Part shown: positions 428-58,055 of the stretch, piece after piece
Layout of the letters: every line of letters begins with the position of its first letter
How positions within the stretch are numbered: the first letter of the stretch is position 1
Virus record (IMG/VR): IMGVR_UViG_3300017770_000005
Span: 12,051-76,050 of that record
Direction: 5' to 3' (one strand)
DNA from: a virus
DNA length: 64,000 nt
Position numbers and translations under genes: made by a program
Notes under the pieces: generated by a model
What the model was told of the DNA's origin: nothing
What the model saw: only the letters and a program-made list of their open reading frames with translations
The model's database searches: none

Positions 428-1091
428 TCACATTAATCTAGATCTACCAGAACTAACTAGAGAAACTATTGATGGAGTTCGATATTATACAGTACCGAAT
501 CATGATGGTCCATTAAAGTTTGTATCTGCCACATCAGTTACCAGTCACTTTAATCGTGAAATTTTTATAAAGTGGAGAAAAAGAGTTGGTGAAGCAGAAG
601 CTAATAAAGTAACCAAACAATCTACAAGTCGTGGTACTGACATGCACACTCTTGTAGAGAACTTTCTTCACAATAAAGAACTACCTTCTGGTTCTGTTCA
701 ACCACTGTCAGAGTTTCTATATTTGATTGCAAAAGATGATCTTAATAGGATCGATAATATTCATGCTCTTGAAAGGTCCCTATATAGTCAGCAGTTAGGT
801 ATCGCTGGAACCGTCGATTGTATTGCAGAATTTGACGGTGAGTTAGCAATAATTGACTTCAAGACATCTAAGAAACCCAAACCCAGAGCATGGATCGAAA
901 ACTATTTTGTTCAATGTGCGGCATATGCGTGTATGTTGTTTGAATTGACGGGTATTTCAGTCAAGAAATTCGTAATCATCATGTCATGTGAAAGTGGAGA
1001 ATGCGTAGTCTATGAGGAAAGAAACAAATCAAAATATATCAAACTTCTCACTCAATACATTAGAAAGTTTGTCGAAGATAAACTGTCTTGA
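417..1091 (+). CDS. PD-(D/E)XK (Cas4/RecB-like) exonuclease of cyanophages
   Basis: Motifs SxTSV, RGTDMH, E..L, AGTVDCIAE, IIDFKTS, QCAAYA; position upstream of gp33/gp59 as in T4-like cyanophages. Confidence 0.85.
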   Translation: MTFNHINLDLPELTRETIDGVRYYTVPNHDGPLKFVSATSVTSHFNREIFIKWRKRVGEAEANKVTKQSTSRGTDMHTLVENFLHNKELPSGSVQPLSEFLYLIAKDDLNRIDNIHALERSLYSQQLGIAGTVDCIAEFDGELAIIDFKTSKKPKPRAWIENYFVQCAAYACMLFELTGISVKKFVIIMSCESGECVVYEERNKSKYIKLLTQYIRKFVEDKLS

Positions 1092-1116
1092 CCTTTAAAG
1101 TATCTAATGTTATAAT
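1088..1116 (+). promoter_or_regulatory. Sigma70-type promoter
   Basis: TTGACC-17 nt-TATAAT with extended -10 TG, upstream of gp33. Confidence 0.75.
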
Positions 1117-1140
1117 GTTATTATGAATTAATTTTATTAT

Positions 1141-1434
1141 ATGTTATCAATCTTTTCCGATATTATGCCGAAGAAAGAAAACGAAGAGTTAAATAAAGAA
1201 CTAGAAAGTAAATTCTATTCTCAGGTGAAAGTGTCGCAGGATATTGAAGAAATCTATACCAAGAATTCTGATATGAGTTACATTGATAGTGTAATGCATT
1301 TCTGTGAACTCAATAAGATAGATGTTGAATCTATTCCTAAACTAATCTCAAAACCGTTAAAAGAAAAAATTAAATACGAAGCAATGGAACTTAACTTCCT
1401 AAAGAGAACTAGTAGAGCTAAACTCTCAATTTGA
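1141..1434 (+). CDS. gp33: Late promoter transcription co-activator gp33
   Basis: YIDSVMHFCE..IDVESIPKLISKPLKEKIKYEAMELNFLK matches cyanophage gp33; precedes gp59. Confidence 0.9.
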   Translation: MLSIFSDIMPKKENEELNKELESKFYSQVKVSQDIEEIYTKNSDMSYIDSVMHFCELNKIDVESIPKLISKPLKEKIKYEAMELNFLKRTSRAKLSI

Positions 1435-1511
1435 AAATCGATTTTTAGTTCCAAAAAAGGTCGTAAAAAAATCCCCAAAATTTTTTCGCACGAAGGGTTT
1501 TTCAAAATATT

Positions 1512-2108
1512 ATGTTGAAGATGACTCCATTTGATTGTTATAAAACTTATCTTGGTTTAAAGAATCATTTCACAAAAGATTCTTATGATTACCACAAGTA
1601 TTGTGGTAAAACCCGTGCCTCTCTTCAGTCTTTCTACAAGAGGAAAGATAGGTACTGGTTTGAAAAAATTTCTAGACAGAAAGATGATGATGAAGTTAGA
1701 GACTTTTTTGTTTCTAACTTCATTTCTTGTGATGATCCACAGACTCTATGGATTGGTGAGATCATTCGTTCTGGTCAGATGAATTATAATAAGTGGCAGA
1801 AGAGGAATCAATCTTTGTCATATGTTTTTCGAGAAGAAGTTCAAAGTCTCATTGAGAATAAAGACTTTGACTCATTGTTTTCTGTAGAAAAAGGTCATCC
1901 AATTATCTTAAAGAAGCATTTGTGTGGTGATATTTCTATCGAATCTTTGGTAATCTTGGAAAAGATCTTAGGATATAAGAAGCACTTTGATAAGTCTTTG
2001 AAAGATCCAGTATGGGAATTGACCAGTCTACGAATTAAAAAGTATATTCCTTTTCTAAATATCGATGTCTTTAAATACAAAAAAATCTTAAAGGAGATAG
2101 TTTTATGA
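1512..2108 (+). CDS. gp59: Helicase loader gp59
   Basis: YKTYLGLKNHFT..YDYHKYCGK..FYKRKDRYWFEK N-terminus; gp33-gp59-gp32 synteny. Confidence 0.9.
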   Translation: MLKMTPFDCYKTYLGLKNHFTKDSYDYHKYCGKTRASLQSFYKRKDRYWFEKISRQKDDDEVRDFFVSNFISCDDPQTLWIGEIIRSGQMNYNKWQKRNQSLSYVFREEVQSLIENKDFDSLFSVEKGHPIILKKHLCGDISIESLVILEKILGYKKHFDKSLKDPVWELTSLRIKKYIPFLNIDVFKYKKILKEIVL

Positions 2109-2443
2109 CTTTCTTTGAATCTGAACTTGTGAAGAATGAGATGGATGAGATCTCTAAACTACAAGAAAAAGTCTATTCAAATGTGTTTGTCTTTCCAAGT
2201 TTAGATAGAGATGGCAAACTTAAACATATTAGTGATCTTGAGATGCTTATGGAGAAACAAAAGATTCTTTACATGAGACTTGCATTATCAGATGATCCAG
2301 ATGCATTGAATATGAAATTAAAAATTCAAGATTCTGCAACAATGATGGGTCTTCCTGAAGATGTTGACATGAACGCACTCTTTGCTAATATGACTAAGTT
2401 GGTTGGTAATCTCAAAGAGCAATTGCTCAAGGAAATCGATTGA
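2105..2443 (+). CDS. Conserved cyanophage/cyanobacterial hypothetical protein (DUF1825-like)
   Basis: FFESELV...KQKILYMRLALSDDPDA motif; lies between gp59 and gp32. Confidence 0.7.
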   Translation: MTFFESELVKNEMDEISKLQEKVYSNVFVFPSLDRDGKLKHISDLEMLMEKQKILYMRLALSDDPDALNMKLKIQDSATMMGLPEDVDMNALFANMTKLVGNLKEQLLKEID

Positions 2444-2468
2444 CACTAAATAAAATGCCTGCTATAAT
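2440..2468 (+). promoter_or_regulatory. Consensus sigma70 promoter for gp32, with a late-type CTAAATA inside the spacer
   Basis: TTGACA(2440)-17 nt-TATAAT(2463), extended -10 TG; CTAAATA at 2446-2452. Confidence 0.8.
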
Positions 2469-2513
2469 GGCAGAGCACACAAGCCACAATACAAACAAAC
2501 CGAGGTAATCCGA

Positions 2514-3446
2514 ATGTCCTTTTCAAATCTTAAAAAGCAATCATCTCTTGGTTCTCTGACCTCTAAACTGGTCAAAGAAGTAGAAAAAATGAGCACCAAG
2601 AGTGGTGGAGATGATCGTCTCTGGAAACCAGAACTAGATAAGTCTGGTAACGGTTATGCCGTGATCCGATTCTTGCCTGCACCAGATGGAGAAGAACTCC
2701 CATGGGCAAAGATGTACTCCCATGCTTTCCAAGGTCCTGGTGGTTGGTTCATTGAGAACTCACTAACCACAAATGGTGGAAAAGATCCTGTATCAGAGTA
2801 TAATCGTGAACTCTGGAACAGTGGTAATGAAGCAGATAAGGAAACTGTCCGTAAGCAGAAACGCAAACTGTCCTATTATGCTAACATCTATGTTATCAAG
2901 GACTCTGCAAATCCTTCTAACGAAGGTCAAGTCTTCCTGTATAAGTTTGGTAAGAAGATCTTTGATAAGATCATGGAAGCAATGCAACCAGAATTTGAAG
3001 ACGAGCAACCCATCAATCCTTTTGATTTCTGGCAGGGTGCTAACTTCAAACTAAAGATCAAGAAAGTTGCAGGTTACTGGAACTATGATTCTTCTGAGTT
3101 TGATCGTCCTGCTAATCTACTAAATGATGATGATGCACTAGAAGCAGTTTGGAAGAAGGAGTACTCATTAGAGTCTCTAACTGCAGCAGATCAGTTCAAG
3201 ACTTATGATGAACTGAAGACTCGTCTTGACTATGTTCTAGGTAACAAAGGTACTCCTCGTTTCCAAGATCAGGAAACTGTAGAAGAGGAAGCAGACTTCC
3301 GTCGTCAAAACCGTAGTGAAGAAACTTCTTTCACTCCCAAGTTCAATTCTGCTCCAACTCCTGCACCTGAACCTTCTCTTGAAACTACCACAGGAGAAGA
3401 TGATGATGCACTATCATTCTTCCAAAAACTTGCTGAAGAAGATTGA
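2514..3446 (+). CDS. gp32: Single-stranded DNA-binding protein gp32
   Basis: DDRLWKP..DKSGNGYAVIRFLPAP, KRKLSYYANIYV, FKLKIKKVAGYWNYDSS, acidic C-terminal tail ending FFQKLAEED. Confidence 0.97.
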   Translation: MSFSNLKKQSSLGSLTSKLVKEVEKMSTKSGGDDRLWKPELDKSGNGYAVIRFLPAPDGEELPWAKMYSHAFQGPGGWFIENSLTTNGGKDPVSEYNRELWNSGNEADKETVRKQKRKLSYYANIYVIKDSANPSNEGQVFLYKFGKKIFDKIMEAMQPEFEDEQPINPFDFWQGANFKLKIKKVAGYWNYDSSEFDRPANLLNDDDALEAVWKKEYSLESLTAADQFKTYDELKTRLDYVLGNKGTPRFQDQETVEEEADFRRQNRSEETSFTPKFNSAPTPAPEPSLETTTGEDDDALSFFQKLAEED

Positions 3447-3458
3447 GGTTAACTTATG

Positions 3459-3481
3459 AGAGGGTTTGCTTAACCCTCTTA
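3459..3481. terminator. Hairpin between the convergent gp32 and gp53 genes, probably a terminator
   Basis: AGAGGGTT-TGCTT-AACCCTCT stem-loop. Confidence 0.6.
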
Positions 3482-3509
3482 GTTATTGCAGCATATTATA
3501 GTTTAATAT

Positions 3510-4163
3510 TTAAATAGATTCTGTATCTTTAAGGGTTCTGCTGATAAAACCAGTGGAACCCTTTCTATATGACATGATCTCATCCATATCTTCAAATACA
3601 ATATTTAAGTATAATGGTTTTAGTATCTTGATTACTCTTTTTTGTTCTTGAATTCTTTCTTCATATGTGTAATTTGTGACTGGAAAAGAACAATCTTCAA
3701 GAGATACATGTTGACCTAAATCACCATCATAGTATTCAACTTTATGGTTTACATTCACAACAACTTTTGCTGGAAAAACTACTGTACCATTAGAATTTTT
3801 TATTCTCTTAGATTCGTAATGATGAACTTCATATATTGCTTCATAACTTCCATATTTTTCTAGTAGGAAATCATTATATAAATTTGTAGGCATTGGCCAT
3901 TCGTTTTGGATATTTAAAATGTTATTAGTAATTAAAACTACCCAATCTAAATCAGAATCACCATAAACTTTTTCTGCAACATTGTCTGGTCTTTCATCAC
4001 CAACAATAAAATAATCTTCAAAGTAAGTTGTTTGACTTAAAATGTCCTCTCTAAGTTTTGCTCTTCTAAAAATATTTTTAGCATCAACTTTTAATCCAGG
4101 AGAACCTATCTCCAGAAGATTTTGATACTTTATGTTTGGTAGTCTTTTAAAGTAATTTGCCAT
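3510..4163 (-). CDS. gp53: Baseplate wedge subunit gp53
   Basis: YFKRLPN, ERPDNVAEKVYGDSDLDWVVLITNNI..EWP LysM-like motif, VHHYE. Confidence 0.9.
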   Translation of the reverse strand: MANYFKRLPNIKYQNLLEIGSPGLKVDAKNIFRRAKLREDILSQTTYFEDYFIVGDERPDNVAEKVYGDSDLDWVVLITNNILNIQNEWPMPTNLYNDFLLEKYGSYEAIYEVHHYESKRIKNSNGTVVFPAKVVVNVNHKVEYYDGDLGQHVSLEDCSFPVTNYTYEERIQEQKRVIKILKPLYLNIVFEDMDEIMSYRKGSTGFISRTLKDTESI

Positions 4164-10561: not shown

Positions 10562-13500
10562 TTGGATTACTGGGGAGTTCAATTACAAGAGCAGTTGGTG
10601 GTCAACTAGCAAAAGGTGCTGCAAAAAAAGCACTTGGTGGTAAAAATAAAAAACAATCTCAAATTGTAAAAAGTCCAACCCAAGGTCAAGGACAAGGAAA
10701 AGGTGGTGCGATTGCAATAAGACCAAAGTCTGTACTTATACCAGCATCAACTATTCCTGCAAGAAATAATAAAACAGTATCTGGATCATCAAAGTCTGGT
10801 CCAGGAACACTCGAACGTATTGATAAAGAAGTTCTTGAAATTAGAAACTTACTTGGCAAGTCAATAAAAATAGAGAAACAAGATGCAACTACCAAGAAAA
10901 AATTATTTGAAAAAGAATTAAGGCAGTCTAAAGAGAACAAACTAGAAAAAAAATCTAAGATTGGTTCTGGACTTGGTGGACCAGGACTTTCAAAAATTCT
11001 TCCCAGTGGTGGAATTATTGATGCTATTCAAAACTTTATATTCAGTGTTATTGGTGGTAAAATATTAATATTTTTATTTGAAAACAGAGAAGCAGTATTT
11101 AATATTGTAAAAGGTCTTGCTGCTGCCACAGAATTTATCCTAGATCTAGGAGGAAAAATTCTAAATGGAATTATATCTCTAGTTGATGGTGCCTATGATA
11201 TTACCGACGCAATATCAAAAGAGATTGAAGCTGTTGGTGGAGAGGATGCTGGAAAAGAATATGGTAAGTTCACAGAAAAATTCAACAAGTTTGTTAACAT
11301 TGCAATGATCTTGGCAATGTCTGGAGTTCCTCTTGGTGGTATGGGATCTCCTGCAGCAAAACCTGGAGCAAAACCTGGAGTAAAACCTCAAAGTAATCTA
11401 TCACCTGGTGGAAAACCAGGACCAGGATCAAATAAATTTGGTGGTGCAAATAATAAGACTACGGAATATATGAATCGTAACCGCACGGCAAAATATTTTG
11501 AGAGAAAGTATGGTAATAATGCTGCTAGAGAATTTTCTAATGCACATAACAATGCTATAAACTCTGGCATGAAGCCAAAAGACGCATTAGCAGATGCAAA
11601 GAAACGTACAGAAAGGTTGATAAGAAAGAACAAGGGTCGTTTCAAAGTTCAATCTGCAGGACCTGGTTTGAGAGGTGGACCTGGAGGACAAGTAGCATCT
11701 GGAAGAGCAGGTGGTGTTTTTAGAAGAGGACTTAGAAATTCTGGAAGTCGTCTTCAGACCAGAATTATGGGTCGTGGTGCAAGACTTGGTTTGAATAGAA
11801 CAGGAGCAAGACTTGCAAGTAAATTTGCCAGAGTTGGTGCTGGACCTCTAGGTAGAATACCAATTGTTGGTCCACTTATGGTTGGTATTGCTTCCTATAT
11901 GGAAGATGGTAAACTTGATAGAGCATTGTTTAAGGTAGGTGGTTCTGCTATTGGTGGTTTCCTTGGTTCATTTATCCCAATTCCATTCCTAGGAACACTC
12001 CTCGGAACACTTGCTGGTGAATATGTTGGTGACTTATTTTATGAACTACTGCGTGGTGGTGGTGCATCTGCGGTTGGAAAGAGACTGAAAAATGATATTT
12101 TAAAAGTTGTAAATGGAGCTAAATTATTTTCTGAGTGGATGATGAAGGGTATTTCTAATATCCAAAAACAAGATGGACCAGAACTTGATTTATCATGGGT
12201 TCCCTTCTCAGATTTTGGTAAGATAAGACTTGGTGGTTGGGCTACTTTATTAAATCCTTTAGAGTTGAATCTAGTTAAAAAGTTTGATGTTTTAAGAAAA
12301 TCATTCTTCTCAGAATCGAATAATAATCCTGATAGTTCAACAACTTATACTGAAGGTGGAAGTAACGATGGAAGAGGAAATAGTGATGCTGAGGGTGAAG
12401 AAAGTAGGAGTGGTGGTGGTGCAAGACCAACTGTAACTGGTGGTGGTGGTAGACGTTCAATTCCTTCTGGGAATGGAGCAATTACCAAAGTTCCATTTGG
12501 TGATCCAAACTTTAGTCCAGGTACAACTAGAAATAAGTCCACACAAATTTATCTACATTGGACTGGTGGAAATTATAATGATACTAGTGCAAGTTATGGA
12601 TATCATACTATTTTTGCAGGTGACGGCAGTATTCATAGAAATAAAGGATATGATGTTACTGGAATGCATACTGAAGGAAAGAACTCTAATTCAGTAGGAC
12701 TATCACTTGCTGCTATGGGTGGAGAAGGTGTAGATTGGGATAGATTTGGGTCATACCCAGTTACTCAGGAACAATTAAATGCAATGACTGCAGAAGCAGC
12801 AAGACTTGCAATCAAATGGGGGTGGAGTGAAGGTGATATTGATAAGAATATTTGGACTCATGCCGAAGCAGGTTCTGGTTTAGATCCAAGAGGATTGAGT
12901 GGACACCTAGACAAGAATGGAGATGGAGCTCCAGATAATTATGGTCCGAGAATGTGGGGTGGATCTGTAGCAAGATGGGACCTATTGAATGTCACTGAAG
13001 GTGCAGAAATGGGCAGTGGAGGTAGTGTTGCCCGTGACATGGTTAAGAAACATTTTAGAAACTTTAAGCAAGAAGAAACTCAAAGAGGAAAAAGTGATGC
13101 TGAAGGTCTAGAAGCAGCAGCACCATCAGGATCAGGTGATAGAAAGATTCCAAATTCATCTGGACTAGAAAAGTGGCTCAATAATACTGAGAGAGGTAGT
13201 GGAGAAGAATATAATTTGAAAGGAGTTGGAAATTATGTTAGAGGGACAATGTTCGGAGGAGCACCTTATGACAAGTTATTCCTATATCCTGGTGCTAAGG
13301 AATTTAAAGATAAGAATGGACAAGTAAAAGGCATAACAAGAATTAGATCATATCTAGAAAGAAACTATCCAAATTTGTTGTCTGATAAAATTATGGATGA
13401 AAAAGGAAGGACCCAGAAAGGTGCGGGTCTTCCTGGTAATCAAAGTCTTTCCCTTAAAGAAAGGAAAGCTGCTTTAGATGCGAAACAAGAGGTAAAAACA

Positions 13501-50428: not shown

Positions 50429-51097
50429 ATGTCAAATTTTTCATTATATTGTGATGTTCCAGAAGGGCATAATGAATATCTAATTCCCATGTTTTCTGTC
50501 CCACTTCTGCATCTCAAAGTGGAAGAATGGGATGAAAAGAGAAAAAGTCTTCTCGATATGTATTCAAGAAGAAGACAAGAAAGTGATAAATTTAAGATTG
50601 CCACAGGTTCTAATTCTTCTCTAGATGTGGAAACTGATTATCACCACAATCATGACACTGGAGAGACTTACGATAGAGAAATAACAGATATTCTCAAATC
50701 AGAATTAGAAACTTTTTCAGATACTTTTGAATGTGCTGCTGAAGTATGTACTTCATGGTTTGAAAGAGCAACTAATAGTAAGTTTCATCAGGTTCATAAT
50801 CATGGATCTATGGGATTTAGTGCTGTATTATTCATTCAGTTTAGTCCTGAGTATCATACTCCCACAGTATTTTTGAATCCAAACCTGGCAGATAATGAGG
50901 TTTGTAATTGCGTACCACCAGGAATTAGGGAAGGTTCACTTATATTTTTCCCTTCTTATGTTCTTCATTATACTGCACCGAATGAGAGTGAGAAGGATAG
51001 AATCGTCCTCTCATTTAATATAAATGTAGAATACGAGAGTTTTTCTTTCGCAGATGAAGACGATAGTGATGGTGAATACTTCACAAAAGATGTCTAA
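50429..51097 (+). CDS. 2OG-Fe(II) oxygenase-like protein (TIGR02466-like)
   Basis: SW, HQVHNH, FSAVLF, EGSLIFFPSYVLH..PN....RIVLSFNI. Confidence 0.85.
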   Translation: MSNFSLYCDVPEGHNEYLIPMFSVPLLHLKVEEWDEKRKSLLDMYSRRRQESDKFKIATGSNSSLDVETDYHHNHDTGETYDREITDILKSELETFSDTFECAAEVCTSWFERATNSKFHQVHNHGSMGFSAVLFIQFSPEYHTPTVFLNPNLADNEVCNCVPPGIREGSLIFFPSYVLHYTAPNESEKDRIVLSFNINVEYESFSFADEDDSDGEYFTKDV

Positions 51098-51653
51098 ATC
51101 ATTTATTCTTCGCAATTTTTTATTCAAAGATGATGTAAAAGCACTCAATCAATGGACTCTAGATAATTGTCATCTAGATTTTTTTGAAGATGCCTGCATG
51201 GATCCAGATAATCATGGAACACGATTCACAACTCGATTCCCTAATGAAGAGATAGCACCTAATTTAAACTATCCAAAGTCTGCACATACTGTACGGCAAA
51301 GAATAATCAATTATTTTCATCTAGAAGGTTACAAAAGTCCACCATCCTACAGTCATGGAATTGTAAATGGCATTGGATATGATGGTGGCAGAATAGAGAA
51401 TCATATTGACCCTACATATTATCCAAATACTAAAACAGTTCACTTTAATGCTATTACTCAACAAGCACATAAGGGTGGACATACGATCATTGGTGGTGTA
51501 GAATATACAGATATAAATTCTACAGATCTTTTGATATATCAAGTCTCTGAGATTCACCATGAAGTAACACCAACACAAGGTGATACTGCCAGAATACTAT
51601 GGGTTTTTGGATTTTGTTTAGATGATGAAAAAGTACAGGAGATATTCTTATGA
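51090..51653 (+). CDS. 2OG-Fe(II) oxygenase
   Basis: HID...GG...HHEVTP....RILWVFGF (HxD..H..R). Confidence 0.8.
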   Translation: MSKSFILRNFLFKDDVKALNQWTLDNCHLDFFEDACMDPDNHGTRFTTRFPNEEIAPNLNYPKSAHTVRQRIINYFHLEGYKSPPSYSHGIVNGIGYDGGRIENHIDPTYYPNTKTVHFNAITQQAHKGGHTIIGGVEYTDINSTDLLIYQVSEIHHEVTPTQGDTARILWVFGFCLDDEKVQEIFL

Positions 51654-52387
51654 AAGATTTTGCCAACGATGAATCATTATTTGAAACTAATGATTTTTCT
51701 AATATGAATATCATTGAGTTTTGTGATGGTGATAAGGTTTCCAATTTTTATTGGATGGATAATTTTTATAAAAGACCATACGATGTCTATGAATATCTTT
51801 TATCTGTTGAACCACCATTATGGAAAATGGGAGAAGATTGGGAACTTGGCAGAGGTACACTCAACACAAAAAACTTTGAGGATCGTAGACATATGATGAA
51901 GCATCCTGGTATGTCTTCACTATACAGTAAGATCTCGGGTATTTGTGACCAAGAATCCGCAGATGTGGATGAAATTGTAACTAATTTTTCAAGATTCTCA
52001 CGAATTGATGATAACCCATACGAAACTCATTACTGGTGGCCTCACCATGACGGAGGATACAATGGTATATGTTACTTAAGCACGAATGATGAAATTGGAA
52101 CTAACTTATATAAACCATTGGTAACAGATAATCCAGACTTATTACCTCTAGATGAAAATGATGGTGTTAGAGATGAACATGCAATACCATGGACACCAAA
52201 AAACTTATGGGAAACTGTAGTTAGTTTTCGTTCAAAATTCAATAGATTTGCAATGTTTGAAGGATCATATTATTATCACAGTATGAACTTAACTGGTGAA
52301 CATTATTTTGGTGATCACTATAGTGATGCCGAATACAGAATTAATCAAGTATTTTTTATGATGAATGAAACTGAGGAACAAGATTGA
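51650..52387 (+). CDS. 2OG-Fe(II) oxygenase-like protein (DUF6445-like)
   Basis: MDNFYKRP, PHHD, GICYL, GTNLY, KFNRFAMF..YYHS, RINQVFF. Confidence 0.75.
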   Translation: MKDFANDESLFETNDFSNMNIIEFCDGDKVSNFYWMDNFYKRPYDVYEYLLSVEPPLWKMGEDWELGRGTLNTKNFEDRRHMMKHPGMSSLYSKISGICDQESADVDEIVTNFSRFSRIDDNPYETHYWWPHHDGGYNGICYLSTNDEIGTNLYKPLVTDNPDLLPLDENDGVRDEHAIPWTPKNLWETVVSFRSKFNRFAMFEGSYYYHSMNLTGEHYFGDHYSDAEYRINQVFFMMNETEEQD

Positions 52388-52388
52388 C

Positions 52389-53045
52389 ATGCACAGATTC
52401 AGAGATGAAATTACTCCAAACGATGATAATTTCTTAGAGATACCTATTAGTGACAAGAATCGTGAAGATCTTTTCATTACACCATTGTATACCTTTACTC
52501 TAGACATTGATAACGGACCTCTGATTAGAGAATGTTTAGATTTGCGGGAAAGATTTCCCAATGGAGTAAAAAAATCCAATTTTGGTGAAGGTTGGCAGAG
52601 TCAAGTCTATGAATTGCCCACAATCAAAAGAACAACAACTCCTGCTATTCAAAATTTAGCAAGAAATGCTATCGATCTGACAAATGAAATATTGGAAGAC
52701 TTTGGTGCAACTTATAGAGTAGATGATAATCAAATTGGATGGTGGATGAATATTAACAAGGGAATGGGATATAATGTTCATCACACTCATCCTGGATGTA
52801 CTGTTATTGGACTTTATTATCCAAAAATTCCTAGTGACCTAAATGAACAGGAAGGTAAACTCACTCTAATCAGAACTGATCCATCAAATCATAATGCTGC
52901 GTTTGCTGATGTTGCCAATAATTGTGAATGGGTAATTGAACCTGAGGAAAATGTTTTTTACTTGATGCCATCTACAGTTGCACATTATGTGACACCACAC
53001 TTTAGTGAAGAGGAGAGAATATCTATTGCATTTAATATTGGATAA
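52389..53045 (+). CDS. 2OG-Fe(II) oxygenase-like protein (TIGR02466-like)
   Basis: KSNFGEGWQS, WMNIN..GYNVHHTHP, PSTVAHYVTP....RISIAFN. Confidence 0.85.
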   Translation: MHRFRDEITPNDDNFLEIPISDKNREDLFITPLYTFTLDIDNGPLIRECLDLRERFPNGVKKSNFGEGWQSQVYELPTIKRTTTPAIQNLARNAIDLTNEILEDFGATYRVDDNQIGWWMNINKGMGYNVHHTHPGCTVIGLYYPKIPSDLNEQEGKLTLIRTDPSNHNAAFADVANNCEWVIEPEENVFYLMPSTVAHYVTPHFSEEERISIAFNIG

Positions 53046-53082
53046 ATAATACACGTTATCTGTTGTTAGTAATTGGTATAAT

Positions 53083-53619
53083 ATGTCTATTCTGCAAACG
53101 AGTGGTATTCAATTTGGACTTGATAATACCGTTCTTAATTCTAAATATGGCATTATTCCTCAGAATAGTGTTGCAGTATTTTATCAAGCATCGGCACCTA
53201 GTGGATGGTCTCAAGTAACTACTCATAATAATAAAGCACTTAGAGTTGTATCTGGAACTGGTGGTGGGTTCGGTTCTGGTGGATCTAATGGTCCTGGTGG
53301 ACAACCATTTTCTACTATATTTCCTACATCAACACGTCCAATTAGTGGTACTGTAACTTCTGCTGGTTCAGTAGGAAACACAACATTAACAGTGCAGCAA
53401 ATTCCTGGACATACTCATAATGCAGGTTCTCAGGTTAATGTAAGTCCTGGATCTCCTAGTGTTGGAGGACGTGCCGTAAATACTTCAGCACCAGCAACAT
53501 CTCCAACGGGTGGAGGTAACTCACATACTCACCCATTTGTTGGTGCCTCATCACCTTATAGTGGAAGTATTGACCTTAGAGTTAAATATATTGATGTTAT
53601 CATCTGTCGTTTTAGTTGA
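53083..53619 (+). CDS. Small tail-collar/short-fibre-like protein
   Basis: FYQASAPSGW..ALRVVSGTGGG, TLTVQQIPGHTH, TGGGNSHTHPF, YIDVIIC. Confidence 0.75.
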   Translation: MSILQTSGIQFGLDNTVLNSKYGIIPQNSVAVFYQASAPSGWSQVTTHNNKALRVVSGTGGGFGSGGSNGPGGQPFSTIFPTSTRPISGTVTSAGSVGNTTLTVQQIPGHTHNAGSQVNVSPGSPSVGGRAVNTSAPATSPTGGGNSHTHPFVGASSPYSGSIDLRVKYIDVIICRFS

Positions 53620-53629
53620 GGTATAATAT

Positions 53630-54892
53630 ATGTCTATTTTAAGAGCAGACGGGATCCAGTTCGGGAATGGTACTCAATTAAATACGTTTTACGGTATTGT
53701 TCCACAATCATCTACGATGCTGTTTTATCAATCAGCAGCACCAACTGGGTGGACTAAAGAAACATCAGCAAACGATCAAGCACTTAGAGTTGTAGATGGA
53801 ACGGGTGGAGGATCTTCTGGACAGAATAGTTTCAGCACAACATTTGATGATGGTGGTGCTACTTCAGTTGTAACTTCAACCCTATTGGGTAGTATTGGAC
53901 CAACAACACTAACAACACAACAAATTCCAGCACATACCCATAATACTGGATCAAATCCAAATTCCTATAGATCATCTGGTGGTTCTTCACCATTTAGAAC
54001 AACTAATAGGCAACCACGTGGATATAATATTAGAGCAACAACTAGAACACAAATTAATAATCGTGTTCAGATTAATTTTAGACAACCTAGACAGGTAAGA
54101 CAACCTCGTAACTATAGACAACCACGAAGGCAGAGAGTTCCACTCAGAAACAGACAACCAAGAAACTTTAGAGTAAGATATCCTACACGTTCTAGAAGAC
54201 CATTTAGTTTTAGAGTTCCTGTTCCATTCCGTGTTCCTGTAAGATCACGAAGACCAATATCTCAACGAAATCCTGGTGGAAGATGGAGAAACTCTATTGG
54301 TCAATCTTGGAGAGCAGGTGGAAGAAATAATGATAGAACACCAAGAAGAAGATGGGGTCGGAGAAGAAGAAATGATAGGATTCCAAGAAGAGCAGATAGA
54401 AGACAACCTAGAGTAAGTTGGTGGAGACAGAGAAGACAGTTTAGAAGACCTGTATCTTTTAGACAGAGAAGATCTTTCCGTCAACCTCGTAACTTTAGAC
54501 AACCCAGAAATGCAAGACAGAGGAGATCATTTAGGAGGAGGCAACCAAGATCATTCAGAGTGAGGTATTCATTCAGGCAGAGAAGATCTTTCCGAGTGAA
54601 TATTCCGTTCAGAGTAGCAGTTCCTCAGAGAAATCCTTCATCTTTTAGACAACCAAGAACATATCGTACACCTCAAAGATATCCACAGACTACAAGTGTG
54701 AGGGTAACTCAAAGGGTTCTAACTCCTGGTGGTACTATTAGGAAGAATAATACTCAAGGACCAGCAACAAGATCAACTGGTGGTGGTCAATCACATACTC
54801 ATCCATTTACTGGTAGTGAAGTTACTTTCTCTGCTGCACTATCACCACTTAGAGTTCAATACATTGATGTCATTACTTGCAGTTTAGATTAA
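53630..54892 (+). CDS. Paralogous small fibre-like protein with a ~250-aa arginine-rich insertion
   Basis: N- and C-termini align with 53083..53619; the insert lies between QIPAHTH and GGGQSHTHPF. Confidence 0.8.
   Translation: MSILRADGIQFGNGTQLNTFYGIVPQSSTMLFYQSAAPTGWTKETSANDQALRVVDGTGGGSSGQNSFSTTFDDGGATSVVTSTLLGSIGPTTLTTQQIPAHTHNTGSNPNSYRSSGGSSPFRTTNRQPRGYNIRATTRTQINNRVQINFRQPRQVRQPRNYRQPRRQRVPLRNRQPRNFRVRYPTRSRRPFSFRVPVPFRVPVRSRRPISQRNPGGRWRNSIGQSWRAGGRNNDRTPRRRWGRRRRNDRIPRRADRRQPRVSWWRQRRQFRRPVSFRQRRSFRQPRNFRQPRNARQRRSFRRRQPRSFRVRYSFRQRRSFRVNIPFRVAVPQRNPSSFRQPRTYRTPQRYPQTTSVRVTQRVLTPGGTIRKNNTQGPATRSTGGGQSHTHPFTGSEVTFSAALSPLRVQYIDVITCSLD
53996..54742 (+). repeat. Arg-rich degenerate peptide repeats (RQPRxx / RQRRSF)
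   Basis: 10 RQPR and 4 RQRR units by manual count; AGACAACC-type DNA repeats. Confidence 0.85.
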
Positions 54893-54930
54893 CATCGTGC
54901 TATAATAAATAATACACTGAATCCCTTGTT

Positions 54931-55317
54931 ATGGCAAAACAGACTGGTAAATGGTGTCCACTAATTCGTAAGGATTGTGTAGAACATAAATGTGCATGGT
55001 ATACGCATATTGCGGGTGTAGATCCTAATACTGGAAATCCAGTAGATCATTGGTCTTGTGCCATTCAATGGATGCCAATGCTAATGATTGAAAATAGTCA
55101 GCAACAACGTTCTACAAGTTCTGCTGTTGAGTCTTTCCGTAATGAAATGACTAAAGCACACGAAACTAATCAGAATATGTTGGATGCTGTCGGTAACATG
55201 TATCTTGATATGTGTGAAGATCAGGGTGTCAATGTTTCTGAATACATTGAACAGATTGATGGCATAGATAATGAAGAAGAAAACTTACTACCCGAATCCG
55301 AAGAGGAGAAAAAATGA
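54931..55317 (+). CDS. Cys-containing conserved phage protein that accompanies small-fibre cassettes
   Basis: CPLIRKDC...CAW...CAIQWMPMLMIENSQQQRST..AVESFRNEM; acidic C-terminal tail. Confidence 0.7.
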   Translation: MAKQTGKWCPLIRKDCVEHKCAWYTHIAGVDPNTGNPVDHWSCAIQWMPMLMIENSQQQRSTSSAVESFRNEMTKAHETNQNMLDAVGNMYLDMCEDQGVNVSEYIEQIDGIDNEEENLLPESEEEKK

Positions 55318-56648
55318 AAATTTCTATTATCCCAGAAGATAAAAAAATTATCGTAGATGGTAAAACCGTGGATCTTGAGGATAATGCACCTTGGGATTTT
55401 GATGATGAACCCATCCATGCAATTCAGTGGAAGGATGATAGAGGTGAATTGGAATATGAAGATATTATTGGTGAAGAACCAGCACCAAATAAAATTTTTG
55501 GTGTAGATGAATTTGATACTATTGTTCAACCATATCTAGATTACTTTAATACATTTTTGGATTCATACGAGAAATCAGAACTTGAGTCTGCATTACAAGA
55601 AGAGCAAAATATTGCTGATCAGATTGAAGAATTGAATATTGATAAACTTGAGAAAGAAGCACAACTTGTTATCATTGAAGACCTCAAGAGACAGAATAGA
55701 GAACTTCGTGATGAGAGAGAAGATTTGTATGAGGAAAAGAGTAAGTCAGATCAAGCAGCAGTATATGACAAGCAAGTTGCTTTAATTGAACTCGAACGTG
55801 AAAAAGCAGCACGTGAATCTGAAAAGGCAGGTTTAGAATCACAGAAAGCAGATGAGTTTTTTGAGAAGAAGTCTTTAGAACTTGCTAAAAAGTATGATGA
55901 ACTCTTTCATGATTTTGAAAAGGAAAAAGATGCTTTTGTAGAAGAAAGGAAAGAGTATCAAGAATTGCTGCAAATGGAACGTGATAAGATTGAGAGGGAA
56001 GATGATCTTTCTATGAAGCAACTTGCTCTCGAAGATAAAGAACGTGAAACAAGAGAGGAAATGATTGCCAAGGTTAGGTTGATCGAAGAAGAACAACTTG
56101 ACATTGCTAAGGCAGAACTTGAATTGCAGAAACAGGCAGTTGATATTATCCGTTTGGAGAATCTTGAAGTTCAAGAACAAATCAATGCTGCTAGAGATGT
56201 AATTAAAGTAAATCTTGAAAAGCAGGAAGATGAGTTTGAGAGGAGAAAGGATCAAGAACTAGAAATTATCATGAGATCTCATGAAGATCTAATGAATAAA
56301 ATGTCTCAGGAAGAGGCATTTGATGAACTAGATGATGCTGTAGAACGTGAATTTGATAAAGCAGAAGTTGAGTATAAAGAATTTCAAAGAGAAAAACTCA
56401 AGCAATCTAATAGCAGTATTCATGCTGCTGGTCAAGAGAAAATCATTAGAGATAGTATTGAACGTGAAGAAATTCAGGGTGGTGCTGACAAATCTATCGA
56501 AGATATCCTAACACTTATGGACGGTATTGACCCAGAAGAACTTTATACTGTACTAACTGATGATGAGAGAGGAGAAAATTCTTTCCCTGTAGATAAGGCA
56601 GTTAAGTGGTTTGCTGCCCTAAAAGAAGTTCTAGATAAAAATGATTGA
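55314..56648 (+). CDS. Fibre-chaperone-like N-terminal domain with a long acidic coiled coil
   Basis: ISIIPEDKKIIVDG...IHAIQW...GELEY N-terminal domain; about 350 aa of E/K/D/L heptad-like sequence. Confidence 0.65.
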   Translation: MKISIIPEDKKIIVDGKTVDLEDNAPWDFDDEPIHAIQWKDDRGELEYEDIIGEEPAPNKIFGVDEFDTIVQPYLDYFNTFLDSYEKSELESALQEEQNIADQIEELNIDKLEKEAQLVIIEDLKRQNRELRDEREDLYEEKSKSDQAAVYDKQVALIELEREKAARESEKAGLESQKADEFFEKKSLELAKKYDELFHDFEKEKDAFVEERKEYQELLQMERDKIEREDDLSMKQLALEDKERETREEMIAKVRLIEEEQLDIAKAELELQKQAVDIIRLENLEVQEQINAARDVIKVNLEKQEDEFERRKDQELEIIMRSHEDLMNKMSQEEAFDELDDAVEREFDKAEVEYKEFQREKLKQSNSSIHAAGQEKIIRDSIEREEIQGGADKSIEDILTLMDGIDPEELYTVLTDDERGENSFPVDKAVKWFAALKEVLDKND

Positions 56649-56657
56649 TATATTGAA

Positions 56658-58055
56658 ATGAATAATGAATTGTTGAAGAACAACTATATCGTTGTTCCTA
56701 ATTTTATCGATCCAGATCATGCCTCACGATTAGAAAAAGAGTTCTTTGTTACTGATGAAATCTTTGATTTTAGTGGTGATGAACAGGCACCAAACTCATC
56801 AGCAGTATATGATTATCTCCCAGCATTAGAACTTCTGGCAAACAAAACTTCGGAAGTTTCTAAACTAATTGGTGAAACTGTTCTCCCAACTTATGTTTAT
56901 TCTAGAATATATCGAAACGGAAGTATTCTTCATAGACACACTGATCGTCCTGGATGTGAAATATCATTAACATTGCACTTAGGTAGTGATAAACCTTGGG
57001 CAATTTGGATTGAAACACCAGAAGGAAAGAATAGATCAGTTAACTTGAATCCTGGTGATGCTATGCTATACTTGGGATGTATTGCTCCACATTGGAGAGA
57101 TCAATTTGAGGGTGAAGAGTACACTCAATTTTTCTTACATTATGTAAGAAGTCGTGGTATGTGTAGTCCTGCATACTTTGATAAAAACAAATTTAGAGAC
57201 ATTGACACTGAAGACTTATTACGGGAGTACAAACAAATGGGAAAGTTTACTAATGTAAATGAGATGACAATACTTCCAAAGAAGTATAGAGAAAAACAAG
57301 AAAGAAACGATGATAATAAGGTTGAATTTATACTAGATTCTAATAACGATACTGATACTTTCTTTGACTTTGACGATGTAGTCATTGCTAATGATAAGTA
57401 TAAAAAGTTCTTGACTAAAAAAGATACTCCAGAATTGATTAATGAACCTAAGGTAGAGAATAAAGCAAAACCATCGGGCAAATTGTCATCTAAACCTATT
57501 GCTGATTTTGTATGGCATGGTCAAGAAGTTGTTGATCCTGAACTATGTGATAAAATCCTAGATGAGTATGCAAATACAAACTATTGGGAAGCAACATTAA
57601 CTGGAAGTGGTCATGATCCAGATGCACGAAGGTGTGAACAAATTTGTATTTCTGAGCAATCAATCATTGCTGAAGATAATTCTGACACTAGGAAACAGTT
57701 AGATGATCAAATGTTTGAGGTTGTTCAAAACTTGATCGGACTTTATCAAGAAGCACATCCAGAGTTTGAACTAGAGATTCAAGAGGATAGTGGTTATGAA
57801 CTGCTCAAATATGAAGAGGGTGACTTTTATATTGAGCATACAGATTCGTTCAAAGAACAACCTAGAGCATTAACAGTGATTGTGTCAATGAATAATGCAT
57901 ATGAAGGTGGAGAAGTTGCTTTATTCAATCGTGAACTAGTATATAAACTTGATGTTGGTGATGTAATTATGTTCCCATCTAATTTTATGTACCCACATGA
58001 AATTATGCCAGTTACTCAAGGAACAAGATTCTCTATCATTACTTGGGTTGTATGA
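56658..58055 (+). CDS. Two-domain 2OG-Fe(II) oxygenase (prolyl-4-hydroxylase-like)
   Basis: Domain 1: HTDRPGCEIS...HWR...QFFLHY; domain 2: HTD...YEGGE...MFPSNFMYPHEI.PV..GTRFSIITW. Confidence 0.88.
   Translation: MNNELLKNNYIVVPNFIDPDHASRLEKEFFVTDEIFDFSGDEQAPNSSAVYDYLPALELLANKTSEVSKLIGETVLPTYVYSRIYRNGSILHRHTDRPGCEISLTLHLGSDKPWAIWIETPEGKNRSVNLNPGDAMLYLGCIAPHWRDQFEGEEYTQFFLHYVRSRGMCSPAYFDKNKFRDIDTEDLLREYKQMGKFTNVNEMTILPKKYREKQERNDDNKVEFILDSNNDTDTFFDFDDVVIANDKYKKFLTKKDTPELINEPKVENKAKPSGKLSSKPIADFVWHGQEVVDPELCDKILDEYANTNYWEATLTGSGHDPDARRCEQICISEQSIIAEDNSDTRKQLDDQMFEVVQNLIGLYQEAHPEFELEIQEDSGYELLKYEEGDFYIEHTDSFKEQPRALTVIVSMNNAYEGGEVALFNRELVYKLDVGDVIMFPSNFMYPHEIMPVTQGTRFSIITWVV

Follow-up and report, generated by a model that had tools for sequence, protein, structure and literature searches.

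Does a phage that builds a tail fibre rich in arginine also make an acidic partner that holds this positive charge in check? The question is raised by a four-gene locus in a 64,000-nucleotide (nt) stretch of viral DNA (positions 12,051 to 76,050 of IMG/VR record IMGVR_UViG_3300017770_000005), referred to here as the window and the source of all coordinates unless another locus is named. The window is a fragment of a T4-like cyanophage, from a 76-kilobase (kb) record that is about 33% complete. Its nearest isolate and named relative is Synechococcus phage S-SCSM1 (Kyanoviridae), which shares 77.5% nucleotide identity and the same gene order over window positions 53000-57000. The four genes, all on the plus (+) strand, encode a small fibre (paralogue A), a second small fibre with an arginine (Arg)-rich insert (paralogue B, the Arg fibre), a protein with four cysteines (the Cys protein) and an acidic protein, a layout that is kept in S-SCSM1 and in 28 further metagenomic loci.

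An initial annotation of this DNA had proposed that an acidic helical extension co-evolved with the Arg-rich sequence as an electrostatic sheath, which would make the acidic protein a candidate chaperone. The explanation that best accounts for the locus as a whole, with a probability of about one in two, is that the 444-amino-acid (aa) open reading frame (ORF) of the acidic protein encodes a lengthened version, specific to one clade, of a fibre accessory protein that is widespread in phages. The pairing of fibre and acidic-protein genes is itself real and conserved. What is new here is a family member that has gained a helical rod as well as a new C-domain and always lies beside an Arg-rich fibre tip, whereas its kinship with tail-assembly chaperones is of an already known kind.

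The acidic protein and its family

The acidic protein (55314..56648) is encoded by the second gene after the Arg fibre, with only the Cys gene in between. This position, like the motifs quoted in the initial annotation, was found as described there. The protein contains 131 acidic (D+E) and 66 basic (K+R) residues, for a net charge of -65 and an isoelectric point (pI) of 4.4. It can be aligned from end to end with 47 homologous clusters of 440-470 aa, down to 37% identity, and the alignment separates three modules: a highly conserved N-terminal domain (N-domain, residues ~1-95), a middle region that is constant in length but poorly conserved, and a conserved C-terminal block (residues ~395-444). 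In an AlphaFold2 (AF2) model made with the homologue alignment (mean predicted local distance difference test score, pLDDT, 77), six short strands fall within residues 1-62, followed by a continuous helix over residues 84-329 (pLDDT ~90), further helices at residues 335-366 and 370-388, and a small helical C-domain. Invariant columns, the AF2 strands and a profile search place the N-terminal beta domain at residues 1-95 (55314..55598). The helical rod is placed by AF2 at residues 84-388 (55563..56477), and the C-terminal helical domain is placed by invariant alignment columns at residues 395-444 (56496..56645).

The profile search with the N-domain (E<=1e-3) returned 2361 clusters at the 50% identity level. 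The domain, a beta unit of ~70 residues that defines the family, starts at the very N-terminus in all matches listed, at position 1 or only a few residues further in. The best 150 of these clusters have a median length of 133 aa, in keeping with the initial annotation, where the domain was said to occur mostly as a short protein of its own next to small fibres, and 14 of the 150 have 420-491 aa. The middle region is highly variable, with family members ranging from 73 to 493 aa. Some acidic members (L202:1774-2589, P0078 and P0084) end in a short, strongly basic K/R-rich tail (PKRKRTRKPK-like), opposite in charge to the remainder of the chain. The complete S-SCSM1 genome contains a single N-domain gene.

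A recognizable tail-assembly domain is present in some of the relatives. For instance, the family member at locus L041, which is 49% identical to the window protein over residues 1-50 (tblastn, E 1e-8), contains PF16778 (Phage_tail_APC; E 2.6e-16) and matches phrog_4912, 'tail fiber assembly'. In the T7-like Roseobacter phage CRP-361 (L243, OR420750.1), the N-domain protein gp41, which is 35% identical to the window protein over residues 1-74 (tblastn, E 2e-4), contains PF16778 (E 3.3e-20) and is annotated as 'tail assembly chaperone'. One profile unites all three proteins, and PF16778 itself is matched by the L041 protein and gp41 but not by the window protein.

The genes that surround the N-domain are also shared. 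A fibre gene, a homologue of the Cys protein and an N-domain gene adjoin one another in ~150 loci, and the fibre genes at these loci have a C-terminus homologous to the small fibres of the window (the HxH head domain). The N-domain gene of the window lies directly after the fibre and Cys genes, the same order as in the ~150 loci and in CRP-361. The CRP-361 cassette, at 435-3938, consists of a T7-type fibre that matches the small-fibre profile over its last 156 aa (hhalign 99.8%, E 7e-30), gp40, which is 53% identical to the window Cys protein (E 6e-32), and gp41. Since this trio is common to CRP-361 and the ~150 loci, the HxH fibre tip, the 4-Cys protein and the N-domain protein constitute a portable cassette, distributed from T7-like roseophages to T4-like cyanophages. 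In one group of loci (L029-L040 and L128-L149) the trio is kept with its order inverted: the N-domain gene (91-97 aa) precedes the Cys gene, with the fibre gene on the opposite side.

The acidic protein thus resembles the PF16778/phrog_4912 tail-fibre assembly proteins, a family with a functional likeness to helpers of the lambda Tfa, Mu U and T4 gp38 type, in its N-domain, in its slot after an HxH-tip fibre and in its Cys neighbour. It differs from them in lacking PF16778 and in possessing a ~300-residue rod and a new C-domain, which bring it to three to four times the usual family length. The chaperone candidacy raised in the initial annotation holds in the sense that the protein is a member of a fibre-linked family of accessory or chaperone-like proteins, with N-domain relatives carrying Phage_tail_APC encoded directly after fibre genes.

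The extension had been described as long, helical and strongly acidic. The helix is upheld by AF2, but the last term needs qualifying, as residues 96-390 comprise 90 acidic and 52 basic residues (net -39) and form a mixed-charge E/K/D/R helix, not a polyanion. This region has no Pro, 4 Gly, 27% hydrophobic and 48% charged residues. The rod is probably a coiled coil. A long uninterrupted alpha-helix is predicted over residues 84-329, and a hydrophobic content of 27% is too high for a typical single alpha-helix domain. Fourier power at the heptad period of 3.5 is not above that of shuffled sequences (p 0.36), and local a/d occupancy is 0.25-0.75. The C-domain, with the motif DPE..Y..LT....FPV.KA..WF..LK, is common to both branches of the clade of Arg-insert loci (hhalign 96%, E 4e-9). 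That it might be shared with the sister clade or with the short forms of the family was rejected (hhalign probability <3%).

Beyond the N-domain family, database searches returned little. The whole acidic protein has no Pfam match at E<=0.01, the separate N- and C-domains have none at E<=1 and no PHROG match, and the N-domain alignment has no significant match in Pfam or PHROGs. A PDB sequence search with the family profile (E<=1) gave keratin-type coiled-coil noise only, and no fibritin. For fold searches the full-length model was used: Foldseek found nothing in the PDB at E<=0.001 and, in BFVD, only uncharacterised phage proteins having the N-domain, VIA-align returned only generic long helices such as tropomyosin (Z<=9.4) and no fibritin, and the ESM Atlas gave no usable match. 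For the S-SCSM1 orthologue, ORF247, no BLAST match was listed at publication (PMC9602691).

The Cys protein (54931..55317; 128 aa, net -13) consists of a conserved core (residues 1-72) and a clade-specific acidic tail, in which 10 of the last 30-odd residues are acidic, as had been pointed out in the initial annotation. Across 67 loci, cysteines C9, C16, C21 and C43 are each invariant in 66-67, and a nearly invariant IENSQQQR..T...VESFRNE block is also found. The protein has no family match in Pfam or PHROGs and is unannotated everywhere. The ATG of the acidic gene overlaps the stop codon of the Cys gene in the arrangement ATGA, and the two genes are translationally coupled through this overlap.

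Small fibres and the Arg-rich insert

The first small fibre, paralogue A (53083..53619; 178 aa, net +5), has an HxH head domain without an insert, and no significant match in Pfam or PHROGs. Paralogue B, the Arg fibre (53630..54892; 420 aa), is homologous to paralogue A in its N- and C-terminal parts and is conserved in the 28 loci. Its 85 Arg residues, with 2 Lys and 12 acidic residues (D+E), give it a net charge of +75 and a pI of 12. The Arg-rich insert corresponds to residues 105-383 (53942..54778; bounds from the HTH and GGGxSHxH motifs) and sits in the head-domain loop between the two HxH motifs (H102/H104 and H389/H391), both of them invariant.

Membership of the Arg fibre among HxH tips is indicated by the two motifs, which lie in conserved blocks, and by a match to solved fibre tips. 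The small-fibre profile matches PDB 9qgo_A, 'Tail fiber protein', at E 2e-8, and both HxH motifs and the surrounding blocks align with the solved tips 9qgo_A and 9nxk_A, which are of the T4 gp12/gp37 type. The difference lies in the inter-HxH loop, which is ~45 residues in 9qgo as compared to 279 here, 29% of them Arg. In PHROGs, the Arg fibre has two weak matches only, to phrog_5795 'tail protein' (E 0.001) and phrog_13014. The authors of the S-SCSM1 study, using HHpred, placed the small fibres with T4 gp10, gp12 and gp37 (PMC9602691 supplement). A literature search for arginine-rich cyanophage fibres found nothing on them.

Within the clade the insert is 270-376 aa long, with 44-96 Arg per Arg-insert fibre. 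It is alignable across the clade, with a RRRGGRRRR-like tip at its centre, and its Arg residues follow a period of 3 rather than 2 (z 5.1), as in hexapeptide-like FRQPRN units. The AF2 monomer of the Arg fibre is poor (pLDDT 45). It contains, at low confidence, a long beta hairpin that pairs residues 127-169 with 316-360, an arrangement consistent, at the same low confidence, with an insert that projects out and back. In an early-branching clade (L028, L033, L108) the insert is longer (359-376 residues in L033 and L108), Q/N/P-richer and has fewer Arg. At L103:805-2100 the Arg fibre is broken into ORFs of 297 and 118 aa, probably owing to a frameshift or to misassembly of the repetitive insert.

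That the Arg-rich frame might be an artefact was rejected. The frame is continuous with the homologous N- and C-terminal domains, and its Arg-rich character is still present at 34% identity. In comparisons with five relatives, the ratio of nonsynonymous to synonymous substitution rates (dN/dS) is 0.24-0.42 for the insert, similar to the flanking domains, and 0.16-0.35 for the helical region of the acidic protein. All parts of the locus fall within 0.06-0.42, indicative of purifying selection, and the ORFs are therefore real, constrained coding sequences in these frames.

Insert, rod and charge across the clade

The association of the insert with the long partner is without exception. The partner has 431-493 aa in every complete Arg-insert locus (28 loci, down to 26-38% identity), and 431-449 aa in the core clade, and the form with both rod and C-domain is found only, and always, beside Arg-insert fibres. 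In loci that lack the insert, no partner exceeds 349 aa and none combines a helical rod with the C-domain. Since the C-domain was detected across the Arg clade and not outside of it, it joins the insert and the rod as a third novelty of this one lineage.

A number of observations weigh against reading this association as evidence of a neutralising partner. A tree of the conserved parts alone groups the 28 Arg-insert loci in a single clade (Shimodaira-Hasegawa-like approximate likelihood ratio test, SH-aLRT, 99), and, because these loci are monophyletic, the co-occurrence of insert and rod counts as one evolutionary event. The sister clade, of 13 loci, has two plain fibres per locus (182-211 aa, 3-5 Arg, net charge ~0), and its partners (258-349 aa, net -34 to -65) are D/E-rich and not of the helical E/K type. 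No polycationic ORF was found within 4 kb of these partners. Strong acidity therefore exists without the Arg insert, at the very kind of insert-free locus that the initial annotation had named as contrary to its proposal. In addition, 98% of the best 150 family members are net negative. Acidity is thus a family-wide ancestral trait, older than and independent of the insert, and so did not evolve to neutralise it. What stands of the proposed co-evolution is the presence of the helical form in all 28 Arg-insert loci; a single event, ancestral acidity and unspecific covariation (see below) tell against the remainder. Five of the sister partners (L196:5483-6433, L199:2904-3953, L200:5497-6279, L221:5545-6345 and L228:5492-6376; net -46 to -65) share the motifs LFDD..D and DLS.L[ED]SEF.LE[LM]LFE[ED].

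Charge tests were carried out with 26 unique Arg-clade loci. Fibre charge, which ranges from +32 to +87, varies inversely with the combined charge of the acidic and Cys proteins (raw r -0.85), and phylogenetic contrasts give r -0.59 (p 0.002), with a range of -0.54 to -0.63 over two locus sets. The summed charge of the three products is -4.5 +/- 8.8, as compared to standard deviations (SD) of 14-17 for single proteins and of 22 expected for the sum if the charges were independent. In the window itself, +75 in the fibre is set against -78 in the acidic and Cys proteins. The correlation holds after control for the GC content of the flanks, and drift in GC content as the sole cause of the covariation was rejected (partial r -0.62).

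However, the charge signal is not specific. Ten neighbouring control genes give contrast r values of +0.27 to -0.53, and because three of the ten, one of them a 2-oxoglutarate (2OG)-oxygenase fusion, lie at -0.47 to -0.53, the signal is at the edge of the control range and not clearly beyond it. The sign test for charge tracking is weak as well (15 vs 9). The expectation in the initial annotation that the length of the acidic extension would follow that of the Arg insert was not borne out, as the contrast correlation (r 0.70) depends on one deep split and the counts in a sign test are 11 vs 9. The three covarying neighbours are 465-aa and 222-aa 2OG-Fe(II) oxygenase-like proteins and a 245-aa protein (neighbouring genes, window 56658-58055 and 50429-52387), and their covariation could be due to compositional drift or to a functional link to the fibre.

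These findings bear on the possibility, a somewhat doubtful one, that no specific relationship exists between the two proteins. The acidic protein would then be a generic cassette factor with a middle region free to vary in size and make-up (short, D/E-rich or helical), the rod and insert would have been fixed in the same ancestor by chance, and the tracking of charge would represent compositional drift. Consistent with this are the single origin of insert and rod, the range of middle-region sizes in the family, the sister clade that is equally acidic without a polycation, the similar charge covariation of control genes, and the fact that early-branching, AT-richer loci have less charge in all proteins examined. 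It is less easily reconciled with an association that holds in 28 loci at such low identities, with a summed charge that varies far less than independence predicts (SD 8.8 vs 22), with an acidic protein that falls at the far end of the control values in most subsets, with a partial correlation that survives GC control, and with a new conserved C-domain in the same clade. In sum, ancestral acidity and unspecific charge tracking set the limit of the comparative data, and keep the neutraliser account from counting as established.

What the acidic protein may do

Within the cassette, the acidic protein likely acts as a factor for fibre assembly or escort that docks through its N-domain, as suggested by its position in the cassette, the chaperone domain in some family members, its acidity and the lack of a virion flag. 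It would serve the two small fibres without becoming a structural part of the virion. In the GenBank record of S-SCSM1, ORF244 (the 178-aa fibre) is flagged as 'virion protein', and ORF245-247 (the Arg fibre, Cys protein and acidic protein) are not; 45 virion proteins of this phage were detected by tryptic mass spectrometry (PMC9602691). The missing flag is uninformative for the Arg fibre, since trypsin would shred it. For the K/R/E-rich 445-aa orthologue of the acidic protein, the missing flag is modest evidence that it is not a major virion component. Points that weigh against this reading are that the virion evidence consists of annotation notes only, and that the acidic protein of the window itself has no Pfam, PHROG or PDB match.

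A comparison can be made with T4 gp57A, a small helical chaperone of ~80 residues that is needed for trimerisation of gp12, gp34 and gp37, and that acts on HxH-type fibres. Both proteins are acidic, alpha-helical and probably prone to oligomerise, but gp57A has no beta N-domain, and its gene does not lie beside those of its client fibres.

In one monophyletic lineage of marine cyanophages, three novelties occur together: paralogue B has an Arg insert of 270-376 aa between its HxH motifs, the partner has a helical rod of ~300 residues in place of its acidic tail, and the partner also ends in a new C-terminal helical domain. How such a factor might operate can be put forward tentatively. The N-domain would dock on the Cys protein or the fibre head. 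The net-acidic rod and C-domain would lie along the Arg insert, keeping it soluble and off nucleic acids until the trimer is built. Inherited acidity may have allowed the polycation to arise in the first place.

A more specific version, in which the insert (about +75 per chain) and the rod with the Cys tail (about -78 combined) form a stoichiometric, charge-matched polyelectrolyte complex that escorts a polycationic receptor-binding needle, is speculative, and we consider it rather unlikely. Such an escort system would derive from an ordinary fibre-chaperone cassette, and none is known for any phage fibre. Acidic escorts of basic proteins are familiar from histone chaperones such as nucleoplasmin and from prothymosin-alpha with histone H1, and usually act through disordered D/E tracts. 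The likeness to these is a mechanistic analogy only, in which nucleic acids are kept away from a highly basic client by a partner of net acidic charge, at rough charge balance; there is no homology, the window protein is a mixed-charge helix, and its interaction with the fibre is a proposal.

An improbable alternative is that the acidic protein remains bound to the Arg insert in the virion as a stable structural component, a coiled-coil core or sheath, and makes a charge-neutral composite fibre in the manner of adhesins or whisker proteins. This arrangement would fit the nearly 1:1 balance of charge among the three products, the conserved rod length in the core clade and a late-promoter-like motif before the Cys-acidic pair. 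One parallel is T4 fibritin (wac), a virion protein of comparable length that is also encoded near fibre genes and has a three-part architecture of N-terminal anchor, long trimeric coiled coil and small C-terminal domain. The S-SCSM1 orthologue, however, should be easily seen after trypsin digestion and is unflagged next to a flagged 178-aa fibre, relatives carry chaperone-type domains, and the rod has no global heptad signal.

The sequences upstream of the genes are also suggestive of how the cassette is expressed. The late-promoter-like motif ATAAATAATAC (53042..53052) lies 41 nt before the first small-fibre gene, and only two exact copies of it exist in the window, the second being before the Cys gene. 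Related loci have a conserved (N)ATAAATA box 5' of their first fibre gene. The second copy of ATAAATAATAC, 26 nt before the Cys gene, is overlapped by an extended -10 box, TGCTATAAT, and the combined element (54898..54915) is placed 16-25 nt before that gene. For both motifs the promoter role is a prediction from pattern. The TGCTAYAAT form of the box occurs 8 times in the window against 1.7 expected, with 7 copies on the + strand, and a TGnTATAMT-like box also precedes the Cys gene in distant loci. Given ATAAATAATAC and the enriched TGCTATAAT box before the Cys gene, the Cys-acidic pair may have its own promoter and be transcribed apart from the fibres. Scans for sigma-70 promoters and terminators gave no more matches than in shuffled sequences, and exact TATAAATA is absent from the region. 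It is very improbable that the acidic protein acts away from fibres, for example in mimicking nucleic acids or in host takeover, with expression from a sigma-70-type promoter and a place beside the fibres that is only incidental, since the extended -10 box 25 nt before the Cys gene, the similar boxes in distant loci and an acidity resembling that of known DNA mimics, which are highly acidic proteins, are outweighed by strict synteny with HxH-tip fibre genes in both myoviruses and podoviruses, by the chaperone domains of relatives, and by a promoter call that is pattern-based, with sigma-70-like matches no commoner than in shuffles.

For the wider family, naming the two small partners of the fibre cassette, which are unannotated in most genomes, would improve the annotation of fibres and host range for thousands of phage contigs. 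The S-SCSM1 clade represents the extreme case, where a fibre tip with ~80 arginines is always found with the partner form that has a 300-residue helix. If the two proteins bind, they would provide a natural model for the handling of a highly polycationic structural protein, and a handle for expressing such fibres.

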